DNA of 64,000 nt from assembly GCA_963693055.1 (NCBI GenBank), contig OY843751.1:4928001-4992000 (forward strand), in the 5' to 3' direction. The DNA is from a bacterium (GTDB taxonomy: Bacteria; Zhuqueibacterota; Zhuqueibacteria; Residuimicrobiales; Krinioviventaceae). Shown piece after piece: positions 58,818 to 64,000 of this stretch; positions within the stretch are counted from its first letter, which is position 1; the number at the start of each line of letters is the position of its first letter. The notes beneath the pieces were generated by a model. That model ran no database searches. It saw only the letters and a list, made by a program, of their open reading frames with translations, and was not told the DNA's origin. The translations under genes and the position numbers were made by a program.

Positions 58818-59366
58818 ATGCGAATCGAAAAAATGGAAATCCCCGATGTGCTGCTCATCACCCCTAAAGTCCATGGAGACCACAGGGGCTATTTCATGGA
58901 GATTTATAACCAGCAGATCCTGAAAGAGCAGGGTTTTACAGCAAATTTTGTACAAGACAATATGAGCAGTTCAGTCAAGGGCACCTTACGCGGTTTGCAT
59001 TACCAGCTTGAACCGCATGCCCAGGGAAAACTCGTAAGGGTTATCAGAGGTTCGGTCTTTGATGTAGCTGTAGATATACGGCAAACTTCACCCACCTATG
59101 GGAAATGGGTTGGCGCTGAACTCTCGGAAGACAATAAACAGGCATTATATGTACCCCCGGGTTTTGCGCATGGATTCTATGTATTGTCTGATATTGCCGA
59201 ATTCATGTACAAATGTACCGATTTGTACGCACCACAGGCCGAACGTGGAATTATCTGGAACGATCCGGAAATAAATATACAATGGCCTTTGTTGGATAAA
59301 AAGATGATAATATCTGATAAAGATAAAAACTTGCCGTTGCTCAAAAATACGGATAACAATTTTTAA
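58818..59366 (+). CDS. rfbC: dTDP-4-dehydrorhamnose 3,5-epimerase
   Basis: DHRGYF.E, FVQDN.S.S.KGTLRGLHYQ, QGKLV, DVAVDIR, PPGFAHGF. Confidence 0.97.
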   Translation: MRIEKMEIPDVLLITPKVHGDHRGYFMEIYNQQILKEQGFTANFVQDNMSSSVKGTLRGLHYQLEPHAQGKLVRVIRGSVFDVAVDIRQTSPTYGKWVGAELSEDNKQALYVPPGFAHGFYVLSDIAEFMYKCTDLYAPQAERGIIWNDPEINIQWPLLDKKMIISDKDKNLPLLKNTDNNF

Positions 59367-59369
59367 ATA

Positions 59370-59663
59370 ATGAACCCAAATACAAAAAATGCGCTTTCAT
59401 GGATTATCATTCTCGCAGGAATGATTTTCCTTTTTCTCACAACCGCGTCTCCTTTTCTGCATAATCACAACGCAGATTTTGAGCACCATGAAGACTGTCC
59501 GGTTTCCCGGATGGAAGCCACGCTTTTTATTATTATCCTCACCATTATTCTGGCTTTTGTACAAACCCTGCAAAAGACCGGCTCTGCTCTTTTCCACAGG
59601 GACCTTGTCATTATCAGCCAGGTTGCATCTTCTCCGCTCAAATTACGGGCTCCTCCTGCTTAA
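59370..59663 (+). CDS. DUF2946-like His-rich leader protein ending in RAPP
   Basis: TM - HNHNADFEHHEDCPVS - hydrophobic helix - LKLRAPPA*. Confidence 0.78.
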   Translation: MNPNTKNALSWIIILAGMIFLFLTTASPFLHNHNADFEHHEDCPVSRMEATLFIIILTIILAFVQTLQKTGSALFHRDLVIISQVASSPLKLRAPPA

Positions 59664-59748
59664 TCCGTTTACCTAACAAAATACAACTCTTTTTTATACC
59701 ATTTTATCAGGTACTTGGAAACGTATATCTATAAACAGGAGAAATCCC

Positions 59749-60222
59749 ATGAAAATTATAAATACATCCAAATGGATCATATTATTCAGCATCATTACAA
59801 TCCTTTTTTTCACTGCATGTTCAGATGACAGCAATCCCGTTGACACCCATGAATCAGACCATGACCACGCTGAAGCTGCTGGCTTAATTGTATCTTTAGG
59901 TGATCAGGAACTGGTCAGCTATAAAGAAGGCACCGTTACCGGCTCTTTTGCCATTACCACAGGACAAACTACAGACAAATTGACCATTCAATTTATCGCA
60001 GAAGACGGTGATATTTTCACCCCCGAAGGCGATCATTATGCATTTGTCTGGGAAGTTGGCAATACTGCGGTAGCAAACATTCTTCAGGAAGATAGTTATG
60101 GCAAATGGGAATTTGCCATTTCGGCAATTGCGGCAGGACAAACAACTGTCATTTTCAAAATTTTTCATGAAGACCATGCCGATTTTGTCTCTCCAGAGAT
60201 TTCTATAACTGTTGCAGATTAA
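59749..60222 (+). CDS. His-rich lipoprotein, putative metal binding
   Basis: Lipobox FTAC; HESDHDHAEAAG and HEDHADF; RBS AGGAG. Confidence 0.85.
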   Translation: MKIINTSKWIILFSIITILFFTACSDDSNPVDTHESDHDHAEAAGLIVSLGDQELVSYKEGTVTGSFAITTGQTTDKLTIQFIAEDGDIFTPEGDHYAFVWEVGNTAVANILQEDSYGKWEFAISAIAAGQTTVIFKIFHEDHADFVSPEISITVAD

Positions 60223-60228
60223 GGTGGC

Positions 60229-62475
60229 TTGATCATGAGAACAAGGTTATTTATTCTGCTCTTACTATCAACCAGCATTCTCATTAAACCGGTTTACACA
60301 GCACCCGGGTCCGGATTACCGGACCCAGAGTGTCCGGTAGAGTCTTCTGTTTTGACAGGTACAGTCAGAGATTCCATGAACGCAGAGCCCATTGGATTTG
60401 TCAACATTCTGCTGCAAGAGCTCAATCGCTCCATCACCACTGATGCCAAAGGCAGATTTGTCTTGTCAGATTTGAGATGTGGTAGCTTTACCGCAAGAAC
60501 TTTTCGTATAGGCTACAAAAACATTACCTTTCCGGTCACTCTGGTGCACAAAGACACAACACAATTGGACATTGTGCTTGAGCAAACGCCATTAATGTTT
60601 CAGGATGTTTTGGTAGAAAGCCAACGCAGCAGCAATGAGGAACTGGCAAGCACACCCATCATGCTGTCAGATAAGAAACTGCATGCCAACCTGGGCAAAA
60701 CCATTGCCGAAACCGTAGATTATGAACCGGGAGTATCTCAGCAAACAATGGGGCCCGCTCCCGCCAGACCCGTTTTACGTGGACTGGGAGGAGCCAGGCT
60801 CCTCATGCTGGAAGATGCCAATACTACCGGCGATCTCTCGGCAACATCCGCTGACCATGCGGTTGCCATTGAGCCATTGACTACAGAACGCATTGAAGTG
60901 GTCCGTGGTCCCAAAGCGCTTACGTACGGCTCTAATACCCTGGGTGGTGTGATCAATGTGGTTCGGGGATTCATACCCACTACCGGCGTCAAAGTCCCAA
61001 CCGGCTCATTTACCTTGAATGGCGAAACCGTCAACAGCGGCAACGCAGTTGGTGGAGATATCTCACTGCCGGTAGGACCTTTAACTGTACGGTTGGATGG
61101 CAGTACCCGCCGGGCCGAAAGCATCCAAACCCCTGCGGGAACTCTTTCAAATACAGGTATTCACACCAAGAACGCATCCGCCGGAGCGGCATTGATCCGT
61201 AAATGGGGACGTGTAGGCTTTGCCGCGGGCGATTATGAAAGCAGTTACGGCATCCCCCCTGATCCCTATGGCGGTCATCCAAAGGGTGTGGATATCAATC
61301 TTGAGCGCAGACACACAGAAACCCTGCTGGAATGGTTTCCGCATCAACAACGTATTAAAAGCGTAAATATAATCCATACATGGTCACGCTATTACCATGA
61401 AGAAATAGAAGCCTCGGGCGATCTGGGAATGAATTTTGGCGCCATAAACCACAACCTGCGCATAGAAACCACACTGGGAAGCTGCGGCAAATTTGAAAAC
61501 AGCAAAATCGGATTGAAATCCAGCTATCGCGATTATGCTACAGGCGGCCTTACCTTTACTCCGGCAGTTCAGGAATATAATCACGAGTTTTATTTTTACC
61601 AGCAGGCAAACCTGGGGCCATTTATTCAAAACGGAGCGGTGCGGTACAATTTCAAATCCATCAAACCAGATACCCTCTATGAATCAAGACAGGTGGGCAC
61701 AGTTAGAGAACGACAGTTTCAGGGCGTTGCCGCGTCTGTATCGTTGCAATATGATTATAATAATTGGCTCCTGGGTAGTACCGTGACCCGCACCTTTATG
61801 CCGCCGGGCGTGGAAGAACTGTTCTCTGAAGGACCGCATCTGGCCGCGTATGCCTATGAAGTGGGCAATGCAGCACTGAATGCAGAAACCGGACTGGGCA
61901 CCGAGCTGTTTATCAAAAAGAACCAGCGAGATCACTCGCTCTATTTTGCGGTATACCAGAACTATATCGACAATTACCTGATCCCGGTCAATACGGGAAC
62001 AAAAAGCTGGCGGCGCGCGGACCTTTACGTATACCGCTATCTGGGAGAGGCGGTTATGATGCGCGGTACAGAGTTATCAGGCAGCTGGTTATTGTCCCGA
62101 TATTTTTCATTATCAGGCACCCTCAGCTATGTCTGGGGCGAGATTAGCTCTCAGCACACACCCATTCCCCGCACGCCTCCGTTGGAAGGCCGACTGGCAC
62201 TGAACTATCGCAAAGGTAGCTTCTCAGCGGGCATAAACCTGCGCGCGGCAGACGCGCAAACTCGTACCGGCGAATTTGAAACCACAACAGATGGCTATAC
62301 CGTGCTTGATCTTTCAGCGCAATACCTCATCGCCGCAGCGGGATTCATGCACAGTATTTCCTTGTCCGTCAACAATGCAACGGACACATCCTATCGCAAG
62401 CACCTCAACCGCGTCAAAGACGTCATGCCCGAACCCGGTAGAAACGTGCGATTGTTGTACAAGGTGTTTTATTGA
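60229..62475 (+). CDS. TonB-dependent receptor, ZnuD-like metal transporter
   Basis: N-terminal carboxypeptidase-regulatory-like domain, RPVLRG, SADHAV plug motif, IEVVRGP..L.YG..GGVIN, ELFSEGPH, PGRN..Y..F end; start may be ATG 60235. Confidence 0.92.
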   Translation: MIMRTRLFILLLLSTSILIKPVYTAPGSGLPDPECPVESSVLTGTVRDSMNAEPIGFVNILLQELNRSITTDAKGRFVLSDLRCGSFTARTFRIGYKNITFPVTLVHKDTTQLDIVLEQTPLMFQDVLVESQRSSNEELASTPIMLSDKKLHANLGKTIAETVDYEPGVSQQTMGPAPARPVLRGLGGARLLMLEDANTTGDLSATSADHAVAIEPLTTERIEVVRGPKALTYGSNTLGGVINVVRGFIPTTGVKVPTGSFTLNGETVNSGNAVGGDISLPVGPLTVRLDGSTRRAESIQTPAGTLSNTGIHTKNASAGAALIRKWGRVGFAAGDYESSYGIPPDPYGGHPKGVDINLERRHTETLLEWFPHQQRIKSVNIIHTWSRYYHEEIEASGDLGMNFGAINHNLRIETTLGSCGKFENSKIGLKSSYRDYATGGLTFTPAVQEYNHEFYFYQQANLGPFIQNGAVRYNFKSIKPDTLYESRQVGTVRERQFQGVAASVSLQYDYNNWLLGSTVTRTFMPPGVEELFSEGPHLAAYAYEVGNAALNAETGLGTELFIKKNQRDHSLYFAVYQNYIDNYLIPVNTGTKSWRRADLYVYRYLGEAVMMRGTELSGSWLLSRYFSLSGTLSYVWGEISSQHTPIPRTPPLEGRLALNYRKGSFSAGINLRAADAQTRTGEFETTTDGYTVLDLSAQYLIAAAGFMHSISLSVNNATDTSYRKHLNRVKDVMPEPGRNVRLLYKVFY

Positions 62476-62588: not shown

Positions 62589-63245
62589 TTATTGAATCAA
62601 TTCCATAATTTTATCTCTGAAATAACAAAAACTGGGCGAATTATTATTATGAATATCCATATGGGGAGTTATTTTCTCGACCCATTCGGATTTCATCATA
62701 CCAATAAAATTCCATGGCCCTTTTTTTAAACTTTCAGAACCACCTTTATATATAGCATCTGCTAAAAACTCCCAGGTATCACATATAGAATCATTTTCAT
62801 AACGATTTAAAACAGTATCTCTAGCATTTGAATAAGCCGACTTTATAGCCGGTATATCACCTAGCAGCCATGCCTCTCCCTCCTCAATTGCAATACAAAA
62901 TCGTGTTTCGGGTTTTGGCTTACATTGGTCCAAAACAGAAAATAATTCTTGTCGAAAAGTTTTCAAACATTTCTTGTCCAAATCACAGATAATAAAAACA
63001 CATGCACGATAATCAGTGGGATATTGATTGAATGTCTTTCCATATCCTTTTAATAAATTAAGTAATTGGTCTAGTAAAATCCTTTTAGAGGCTTCTGTTC
63101 CAGGCTTTAAATTTCGTGGGATTTTCCCAATCCCTTTATAAGATTTTATCTTAAAAGAATGATTTTCATTATTAATAATTTGGGGTATGAGCTTTTCAAG
63201 CATTACTTTTCCTGATGCATCCTCTACCAATATCTCAAAATGCAT
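62589..63245 (-). CDS. DUF4276-like TOPRIM-fold protein
   Basis: ILVED.S, CDLD, EEGEAWLLGD, N.SPSF..F; directly behind an ABC ATPase. Confidence 0.8.
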   Translation of the reverse strand: MHFEILVEDASGKVMLEKLIPQIINNENHSFKIKSYKGIGKIPRNLKPGTEASKRILLDQLLNLLKGYGKTFNQYPTDYRACVFIICDLDKKCLKTFRQELFSVLDQCKPKPETRFCIAIEEGEAWLLGDIPAIKSAYSNARDTVLNRYENDSICDTWEFLADAIYKGGSESLKKGPWNFIGMMKSEWVEKITPHMDIHNNNSPSFCYFRDKIMELIQ

Positions 63246-63248
63246 TCA

Positions 63249-64000
63249 TTACCTCGCATCCAAATAATCGCTATACCATAACCCTCCTAATGGCAATCCC
63301 TCGCTCACAAGCCCCTCAACAACAGGATCATCACTTGCACGACGAATTTTAGAGAAACCATCATCACCTTTTTCTAAAATCCAAACTTCTTTTGGTGCCA
63401 GTGCGTCAACAAAATAGGGTTGATGCGTTGTTACAAAAATCTGGGCACCATCTTTTCTTTTTATAGCATGTGCACGTAATTCTTGCGCCAAAGTCTCTAA
63501 TAATTTGTGATAAAGCCCGTTCTCAGGCTCTTCAATACAAATGAACGGCGGAGGTGTAGGATCATTCAACAACAAAAGGTATGAAAACAATTTAAGTGTT
63601 CCGTCAGACATTTGCTGCGCATAAAAGGGATCTTTAAAGCCTTTGTCATTAAAGCGGAGTAATAAACGGCCGTCTTCACTTTTTTGTGTATTTATCTTGT
63701 TAACACCAGGAATTTTTTCAGCAATTGAATTCAAAACAGACTTTAACCTGTCCGGATGTTCTCTTTCCATATATTGCACAAAGTTACCCAGGTTATCACC
63801 ACTCACATTCAAATGTTTTTGAGGCCCGGCTAAAGGTAAACTGCGCGCCGCATCAGGAGCAAAATAGCTCAAATACCAACCTTCAATAAAATTTCGAAAA
63901 GCTGATATCCGGGGATGTTGTTTCAGGGCCCCTAATGTCGCAATTCCTAATTTCCTTATATCTTCAAGCTCTACAATTTCCGTTTCCCTACCTTCTTCAA
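63249..64000 (-). CDS. ABC-type (AAA_21) ATPase, partial (continues past right edge)
   Basis: Signature MSDGT, Walker B IEEPENGLY, H-loop TTHQP; frame stays open beyond 63872 (EEGRETEIVELEDIRKLGIATLGALKQHPRI...). Confidence 0.9.
   Translation of the reverse strand, partial: EEGRETEIVELEDIRKLGIATLGALKQHPRISAFRNFIEGWYLSYFAPDAARSLPLAGPQKHLNVSGDNLGNFVQYMEREHPDRLKSVLNSIAEKIPGVNKINTQKSEDGRLLLRFNDKGFKDPFYAQQMSDGTLKLFSYLLLLNDPTPPPFICIEEPENGLYHKLLETLAQELRAHAIKRKDGAQIFVTTHQPYFVDALAPKEVWILEKGDDGFSKIRRASDDPVVEGLVSEGLPLGGLWYSDYLDAR

Follow-up and report, generated by a model that had tools for sequence, protein, structure and literature searches.

Leader peptides that end in a RAPP arrest motif were first described upstream of sec genes (PMC10987492), and such leaders have also been listed before TonB-dependent receptors across Gram-negative phyla (PMC12992588). 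In Bordetella pertussis, CruR (Bp2923, DUF2946/PF11162) is the leader of the cruR-bfrG-bp2921 operon. PMC9426467 describes for it a CxxC motif, a RAPP motif 45 residues later (C90 to R139 being 49 residues), a role of Rho, a dispensable export signal and very low translation, and the arrest of CruR was shown in PMC12992588. In CutF of Rhodobacter capsulatus a copper-induced stall unmasks the next gene's Shine-Dalgarno (SD) sequence (PMC9973294; bioRxiv 10.1101/2025.02.05.636593). Here we describe a 97-codon leader in a stretch of 64,000 nucleotides (nt) of contig OY843751.1 (assembly GCA_963693055.1, positions 4,928,001 to 4,992,000, forward strand), in the following called the window, from the complete 6.5-Mb genome of a bacterium of the phylum KSB1 (Zhuqueibacterota). 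On the plus strand the leader follows the genes of a pyrimidine-nucleoside phosphorylase and of RmlC/RfbC and precedes, after a spacer of 85 nt, a lipoprotein-type gene of 157 codons and a TonB-dependent receptor gene. The best explanation for this arrangement is a zinc-controlled RAPP stalling leader, with a probability of about 0.55: under scarce zinc the ribosome would stall and the importer would be on, and zinc would release the stall. The parts of this reading differ in strength. It is highly probable that the gene is a metal-responsive arrest leader, and quite probable that the metal relieves rather than induces the stall; given such a leader, zinc is probably the main signal.

Like cruR, the leader opens an uptake operon that includes a TonB receptor, encodes an N-terminal hydrophobic segment, has a weak translation signal, carries a cysteine 49-50 residues before a RAPP motif that lies few residues from the stop, and ends in a region with more C than G. 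Unlike CruR, it has three histidines and one cysteine (His3-Cys, with an additional aspartate) instead of CxxC, a full second membrane helix and a predicted masking of the SD sequence. Moreover, its receptor is of the ZnuD type and not a copper receptor, a histidine-containing lipoprotein comes first, PF11162 does not match, and the family occurs in KSB1 and neighbouring phyla and not, as CruR does, in Proteobacteria. With CutF the leader shares an exported-type protein, a metal motif and a proline-rich end as well as, by our prediction, the unmasking of the next ribosome-binding site by the stall. CutF differs in its CxxxC and PPP motifs and senses copper, and its metal-induced stall turns on a detoxifying oxidase. 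Since the target here is an importer, the opposite polarity is expected.

The leader and its conservation

The first-pass annotation had described the leader as two hydrophobic stretches flanking a His/Cys loop with a RAPPA-stop end, which agrees with sequence, hydropathy and an AlphaFold model. The 19-residue Kyte-Doolittle means reach 2.1 (residues 9-27) and 2.2 (residues 49-67), and the model shows helices at residues 3-25 and 44-69 with a predicted local distance difference test score (pLDDT) of 85. A fold search with this model gave no match, no Pfam or NCBIfam family was assigned to the protein when both were scanned, and the sole label returned for the clusters of ten relatives was 'hypothetical protein'. 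Within the genome, R[AG]PP within 8 residues of the stop is found in only 31 of 649,855 stop-bounded frames; five of these 31 frames are long, hydrophobic or His-rich, and all five head metal-transport-type operons.

At E≤0.01 a search profile made from 13 leaders found upstream of lipoprotein homologues matched in 52 of the 167 phylum genomes, with about seven marginal cases, and at E≤0.001 it recovered 358 cluster representatives. Residues and motifs were counted in the best 150 of these 358 representatives, and the counts are inflated because the same profile selected the matches. In the loop, H33 and C43 are found in all 150, H31 in 149, N32 in 133, H40 in 122, D36 in 118 and H39 in 14. 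Position 46, the serine of the CPVS sequence, is occupied by H (39), Y (34), F (33), C (18), L (12) or S (2). The metal site had been proposed to consist of CPVS and four nearby histidines; H31, H33, H40 and C43 of this proposal stand, H39 and the serine do not, and we infer from the conservation pattern that the site is better described as His3-Cys (plus Asp36). The C-terminal motif is RAPP in 97, RGPP in 21 and RSPP in 16 relatives, which gives 134 with RxPP, and about 5 relatives have no such motif. The remaining 11 carry KxPP, mostly as N-K-A-P-P (for example P0029, P0045 and P0058). RAPP, RGPP and RSPP match arrest-capable or partly permissive motifs of PMC12992588, where RAPP is also described as avoided in ordinary proteins.

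Mean column identity across the family is 12%, despite the conserved H31, H33, H40, C43 and RxPP; besides RxPP only three histidines and one cysteine are near-invariant. RAPP and the His cluster, on whose conservation in homologues the first-pass annotation had made its proposal depend, are therefore retained as RxPP and three histidines. The spacing from cysteine to arginine is 48-50 residues in 131 of 134 scored relatives and mostly 53 (3) or 47 (3) in the rest; in our leader it is 50 (C43 to R93). The N-terminus is net positive in 111 of 115 relatives, and the first hydrophobic helix is retained across the whole family. Relative to its counterpart in the sister species, 12 codons of the leader are changed synonymously and 7 non-synonymously, with loop and RAPP unchanged. 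The RxPP leader is a real, conserved gene. The proposal of a CruR-like arrest leader for a metal-uptake operon gains support from RxPP and KxPP in 134 and 11 of the 150 relatives, from a spacing near that of CruR and from the importer-type genes downstream.

Membership by profile in DUF2946, to which CruR belongs, was not borne out. PF11162 matched neither the leader protein nor any other protein of the genome at E≤1, it exceeded its cut-off in none of the 167 phylum genomes, and 4 of the 150 family members matched weakly (best E 0.011). A comparison of the leader family with DUF2946 by hhalign gave probabilities of 2.9% and 1.3%, but the DUF2946 alignment of 2 sequences is too shallow for these values to speak for or against homology. 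In the Atlas, a cluster that is half DUF2946 was listed at 0.90, sharing 134 features, which we treat as a lead only. The CxxC/CxxxC motif of CruR and CutF is absent from our leader, which has CPVS instead; the distance from cysteine to RAPP, the N-terminal helix and the position as first gene before metal-transport genes all correspond to them. By analogy the leader likely works like CruR and CutF, without being shown to be a DUF2946 member.

The family contains a subtype with CxxC (18 of the 150 relatives), which also makes up 20 of the 54 leaders studied together with their loci. For this set of 54, 15 low-scoring rows were dropped, including the real but divergent leaders of loci L004, L095, L096 and L097, and the long-tailed leaders of L044, L045 and L092 were missed by the selection rule (L numbers denote loci compared in this analysis). 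Both subtypes form one family (hhalign 99.5%, with some kin common to both alignments); PF11162 is carried by 1 of 91 matches of the CxxC subtype. The second helix is present in 33 of 34 single-Cys locus leaders and absent in 15 of 20 CxxC ones. We do not claim co-evolution of the loss of the second cysteine with the gain of this helix, as 13 of 17 CxxC proteins of the wider set have it. A plasmid search with a CxxC-type leader gave no match. Eight plasmid loci that carry related receptors yielded a single His/CxxC leader with an RGPP end, in Salinibacter (L111:670-1122), where it is unannotated and precedes the related receptor; no leader was recognised in the seven proteobacterial plasmid loci.

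Downstream genes and the sensed metal

Loci were also chosen independently of the leader, by the lipoprotein. In 18 of 19 such loci, which span KSB1, Latescibacterota, Gemmatimonadota, Zixibacteria and Chlorobiales, an RxPP leader heads the operon; among these 18 the L095 leader precedes the receptor and three have a different His/Cys pattern, and L091 is the sole locus without an RxPP leader. The initial search gave 24 lipoprotein matches, 14 of them with a leader directly upstream. The ten without one comprise a second domain of a gene already counted and, for the rest, more distant or paralogous copies, a contig end and a spurious match. In the survey of homologous neighbourhoods, the gene directly behind the leader encodes a lipoprotein in 25 cases, a receptor in 3 and an exported protein of some 430 residues in another 25, which accounts for 53 of the 54 leaders; one lies at a contig end. 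A receptor was seen after the lipoprotein in 18 of its 25 loci, and the exported protein is followed by ZnuA in 18 of 25. All 15 binding proteins scanned downstream belong to the ZnuA family and all 6 permeases to ABC-3. The exported protein itself (about 420-460 residues), which in many KSB1 genomes lies between leader and znuA (L053-L077, e.g. L061:2644-3921, minus strand), has no Pfam or NCBIfam family and may form a zinc channel in the outer membrane.

Of the 53 leaders for which downstream sequence was available, none is followed by a sec or yidC gene, which sets them apart from SecM, ApdA and ApdP, the monitors of Sec and YidC. This absence, together with the near-invariance of three histidines and one cysteine besides RxPP, makes it very unlikely that the leader reports on Sec/YidC insertion or export capacity, as SecM, MifM, ApdA and ApdP do, or on the redox state of its cysteine instead of a metal, even though RAPP leaders were first found before sec genes and the second helix lies at the distance at which insertion exerts pull.

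As had been noted before, a lipoprotein gene and a receptor gene with a DHAV motif follow the leader; DHAV lies at residues 207-210 of the receptor. Residues H40, H140, H143 and D145 of the lipoprotein are invariant, and the protein is likely a metal-capturing partner. The best NCBIfam match of the receptor is ZnuD (NF038289, 150.9 bits) and its best PDB match is ZnuD of Neisseria meningitidis (4RDR, E 1e-21), ahead of the copper receptor OprC. The high-affinity zinc ligands of ZnuD are D99, H100, E340 and H499 (PMC4557270), with which D207, H208, E390 and H535 of our receptor align. Each of 14 related receptors examined has all four as well, unlike the three other receptors that are linked to leaders in this genome. 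Unlike ZnuD, the receptor has an N-terminal carboxypeptidase-regulatory-like domain, and the His-rich loop-3 clusters of ZnuD were not seen in the alignment.

The first-pass annotation had suggested tuning to zinc, nickel or cobalt. As the receptor keeps all four ZnuD ligands and ZnuA/ABC-3 genes are neighbours of the leaders, zinc is favoured and nickel and cobalt are less supported; from sequence, zinc is the best-supported cargo. A His3-Cys site can bind several divalent ions. The same stalling switch could thus be tuned to another metal (manganese, nickel, cobalt, copper or cadmium) or to several. The transporter families ZnuA/ABC-3 include manganese types, the receptor behind the paralogous leader at L001 lacks the ZnuD ligand pattern, and His-only CutF-like leaders (clusters 14 and 17) have been suggested as nickel or cobalt sensors (PMC9973294). 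We consider such a tuning rather unlikely, given the four retained ligands, the better match to ZnuD than to OprC and the lack of copper-chaperone and Ni/Co-permease families among the 32 downstream proteins scanned, 11 of which had no family or only receptor domains.

Supplement file 8 of PMC12992588 has at least nine rows with zinc-regulated receptors downstream and at least two HNH-loop look-alikes, and the RAPP/RGPP leader lists of that paper comprise a TonB-related class and the Streptomyces leaders SLIV_16130 and SLIV_18480. Neither a KSB1 entry nor a single-Cys two-helix member is among the supplement rows listed, and the main text contains neither the word zinc nor KAPP and no tested zinc-sensing case. 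The leader family could also lie unseen among the clusters of PMC9973294. No tested zinc-sensing arrest leader was found in the literature searched, from which subscription journals mostly fell outside.

Coupling of the leader to the next gene

Genes of the ZnuD type are usually under the control of Zur, as described for Caulobacter (PMC4176598). In contrast, our locus has a leader and no evident Zur box. Fur and Zur boxes upstream of leaders were not enriched over shuffled sequences (means of 7.2 vs 7.4 for Zur-like and 10.9 vs 10.8 for Fur boxes), in agreement with the first reading; the Zur pattern was taken from Caulobacter sites, and a lineage-specific Fur or Zur box could be missed. The two Fur-family proteins of the genome match Fur and PerR best, both below the cut-offs, which does not prove the absence of Zur. 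The single znuABC-like operon has neither an adjacent fur-family gene nor a RAPP leader. No convincing promoter was found for the leader at this locus (best 8/12), and a score of 9/12 was reached by 14 of 52 relatives compared with 14% of shuffles. The leader ATG follows the end of rfbC (59366) after 3 nt. This adjacency, which the first reading had used to suggest post-transcriptional control, is present here and in the sister species and is not a general feature: about 130 nt lie between the two genes in both L008 and L010, and the upstream genes of most relatives are different ones. An SD-like sequence precedes only 3 of the 54 leaders and is absent at the ATG of ours; translational coupling to rfbC could start this SD-less leader.

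Two features had been overlooked at first: the predicted pairing of the last leader codons with the downstream SD sequence and a possible role of the second membrane helix. In the minimum-energy fold the Pro-Pro-Ala codons (59653-59658) pair with the SD sequence (59736-59741). The probability that the SD sequence pairs with the stall footprint is 0.80 for the native leader and 0.03 after synonymous recoding, and none of 20 recodings reached the native value. Across 46 loci (spacers of at most 300 nt, start codons assigned by inspection; 6 long-spacer and 2 start-less loci excluded) the mean is 0.50 for native compared with 0.22 for recoded leaders, with at least 0.5 in 26 loci. Masking of the footprint cuts the cost of opening the start site by a mean of 3.1 kcal/mol (at least 1.5 in 33 of 46 loci), compared with 0.0 kcal/mol in 120 control gene pairs (at least 1.5 in 11). 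In a swap control with 39 loci (spacers ≤200 nt) native leader ends gave 3.9 and swapped ends 1.4, the native end being better in 28. P values for the pairing, footprint and swap tests overstate the significance since the loci are kin. Of the 54 leaders, 21 use CCT for the first proline, compared with 18% in downstream genes.

The first half of the spacer had been described as G-poor, and its first 43 nt indeed contain a single G. Between our genome and the sister species 1 of its 85 nt is changed, compared with synonymous differences in 119 of 495 receptor codons. C exceeds G by 14 over the 78 nt around the leader stop, an excess that 0.4% of 3,550 gene ends attain. Behind RxPP, 40 of 54 leaders have more C than G, compared with 29% of gene ends, and a rho gene is present. 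As the spacer is nearly invariant in the sister species and C-rich, Rho may also act. The evidence for SD masking and that for Rho are not independent, because the anti-SD also needs the C-rich stretch. Six loci of the family (L019, L041, L042, L051, L075 and L048) have spacers of 340-620 nt, which are too long for simple SD masking. A search of these loci gave no Rfam family, and a riboswitch search in 14 loci (Rfam) matched only one transfer RNA.

These long spacers, the weak SD switch at our own locus, the strong excess of C over G at the stop, the presence of rho and the fact that CruR needs no export signal would fit a zinc leader with cytoplasmic sensing whose main output, like that of CruR, is Rho termination, with helices and SD pairing being secondary. 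The first hydrophobic helix is nevertheless kept family-wide and the SD pairing is matched to its own locus in the swap control; we regard this alternative as unlikely. It is highly improbable that the product is a small membrane metal-binding protein that acts after its synthesis, as a chaperone or accessory subunit, with an incidental RAPP. With two helices and a loop of the metal type, the product could be stable as a protein (pLDDT 85). Against this stand RxPP at a fixed distance from the cysteine, the invariable first position in the operon, the rarity of an SD sequence before the leaders, the strong constraint on the spacer and the avoidance of RAPP in ordinary proteins.

Proposed mechanism and its setting

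Under the preferred reading of a zinc-controlled stalling leader, the ribosome would make the first helix, the loop and the second helix and would then arrest at RAPP, as in CruR, ApdA and ApdP. In the arrest of CruR the two prolines, the third and fourth RAPP residues, occupy the P and A sites (PMC12992588). In this register the second helix starts 45 residues from the P-site proline here; among 115 relatives the median of this distance is 44 and its range 35-49. Pulling by a helix sets in at a distance of about 45 residues between its N-terminal end and the peptidyl-transferase centre, and a periplasmic loop upstream of the helix can delay this onset (PMC7886326). The arrest would hence place the start of the second helix where pull at SecYEG begins, with the acidic H-H-D-H-C loop (net charge -4, median -3 in relatives) presumably just outside the inner membrane. 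As long as zinc is missing, the pull would not reach the threshold, and the stalled ribosome would cover the anti-SD and the start of the C-rich stretch; the next gene would be translated and Rho would be unable to load. Zinc would close the loop, aid insertion of the second helix and pull the chain free, so that the ribosome terminates. The freed last codons would then pair with the SD sequence, with Rho termination as a likely second layer. An engineered construct in which zinc-dependent folding frees SecM arrest has been described (PMC4571824); taken together with the position of the second helix and the charge of the loop, this makes a metal-gated helix insertion plausible.

Several findings weigh against this reading. 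With 150.9 bits the receptor is far below the ZnuD cut-off of 950. The ZnuA/ABC-3 families also carry manganese and iron, and our family scans show this overlap with Mn/Fe types. The 15 CxxC-type relatives without a second helix, with a spacing near 53, still head ZnuA operons; the family must therefore have a second way in which this helix is dispensable. The start of the second helix varies between 35 and 49 residues and depends on the rule for the hydropathy window. The folded region as a whole is no more stable than shuffles (z -0.08), and SD pairing is below 0.5 in 20 of 46 loci, including most CxxC-type and Latescibacterota loci. At our locus a single stalled ribosome lowers the cost of opening the start site by only 1.8 kcal/mol, because the stretch at 59630-59635 can take over the pairing and keeps the GGAG core paired; a gain of 4.7 kcal/mol is reached only with this upstream part covered or absent. 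A queued second ribosome would cover it. Finally, CruR works without its export signal (PMC9426467), and CutF has the same anatomy yet the opposite polarity.

A more far-reaching version is tentative and in our view doubtful: a nascent-chain zinc sensor whose periplasmic His3-Cys loop gates insertion of the second helix, so that zinc is read as force, within a regulon of five leaders that stands in for Zur. Such a regulon would comprise five His-rich RAPP leaders of both polarities, before four importer operons and one CusA/CzcA-type exporter. The other leaders of the genome are as follows. A paralogue at genome position 2105178-2105516 (plus strand; L001:3206-3517) has the same H-N-H...H..C loop and a 190-nt spacer and precedes two large lipoproteins and a TonB receptor without the ZnuD ligand pattern. 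A His-rich RAPP leader of another type at 2397332-2397757 (plus strand; L002:3381-3758) lies before an OEP/HlyD/CusA-CzcA heavy-metal efflux operon; as it heads an exporter, a metal-induced, CutF-like polarity would be needed. Two leaders with H-x-H...H-S-H that end in RAPP lie at 1482741-1483151 (minus strand; L003) and 552226-552837 (minus strand; L004). In one of this pair about 560 nt of spacer without Rfam match separate the leader from the PepSY_TM, receptor, DUF1007 and NicO genes that it heads; the other lies behind an MntR/DtxR-type gene and in front of a receptor gene.

The features of the locus are compiled in Table 1.

Table 1. Features of the leader locus; here and in the text, coordinates are window positions unless marked as genome or L-locus positions
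Feature	Position	Strand	Basis
rfbC/rmlC, upstream neighbour only	58818..59366	+	family scans
Leader open reading frame, 97 residues: first helix, His/Cys loop, second helix, RAPPA-stop; SD-less	59370..59663	+	sequence, profile, AlphaFold
First hydrophobic helix, residues 9-27, putative signal anchor or signal peptide	59394..59450	+	hydropathy, AlphaFold
Predicted metal site H31-N-H33-x2-D36-x3-H40-x2-C43, acidic loop	59460..59498	+	conservation; metal binding and periplasmic side inferred
Second hydrophobic helix, about residues 50-66	59517..59567	+	hydropathy, AlphaFold
Second pyrimidine stretch, predicted SD partner when one stalled ribosome covers the messenger RNA	59630..59635	+	folding
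RAPP codons R93-P96, predicted arrest motif	59646..59657	+	sequence, conservation, CruR analogy
Anti-SD CUCCUG inside the Pro-Pro-Ala codons, predicted partner of 59736-59741	59653..59658	+	folding
Spacer, 85 nt, first half C-rich and G-poor, candidate Rho-loading stretch	59664..59748	+	sequence, sister comparison
SD sequence CAGGAG of the lipoprotein gene	59736..59741	+	sequence
Lipoprotein-type protein, 157 residues, predicted immunoglobulin-like fold	59749..60222	+	family scan, conservation, predicted model
ZnuD-like TonB-dependent receptor; possible TTG start at 60229	60235..62475	+	family scan, alignment

A lipoprotein paralogue without the N-terminal His motif occurs just upstream of the leader or alone (L009:451-921, L011:2430-2891, L015:941-1435) and is often preceded by the same unnamed gene of 270 codons. 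In the Latescibacterota and Gemmatimonadota loci L087:376-3422, L089:3-2197 and L091:1076-3807 the leader is preceded by a gene resembling the CobW/COG0523 GTPases and by a beta-propeller-like gene, which we would take as a neighbourhood of the zinc-starvation type. An ATPase and DUF4276 gene pair (62589-63998, minus strand) converges on the receptor; its best PADLOC matches are HEC-01A and HEC-01B, which makes it a candidate anti-phage system.

As the leader class and the idea of sensing metals other than copper are already in print, the surprise is limited. Nevertheless, in the literature we found, copper is the only metal for which sensing by an arrest leader has been demonstrated experimentally. 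A natural zinc version would, if true, extend the principle and provide a means of sensing zinc beyond the inner membrane that needs no transcription factor. The leader would then be a short and portable system for studying how ligand binding becomes force on the ribosome, and the family offers natural contrasts for this, with one cysteine and a second helix compared with CxxC without this helix, and a spacing of 48-50 compared with 53 residues.

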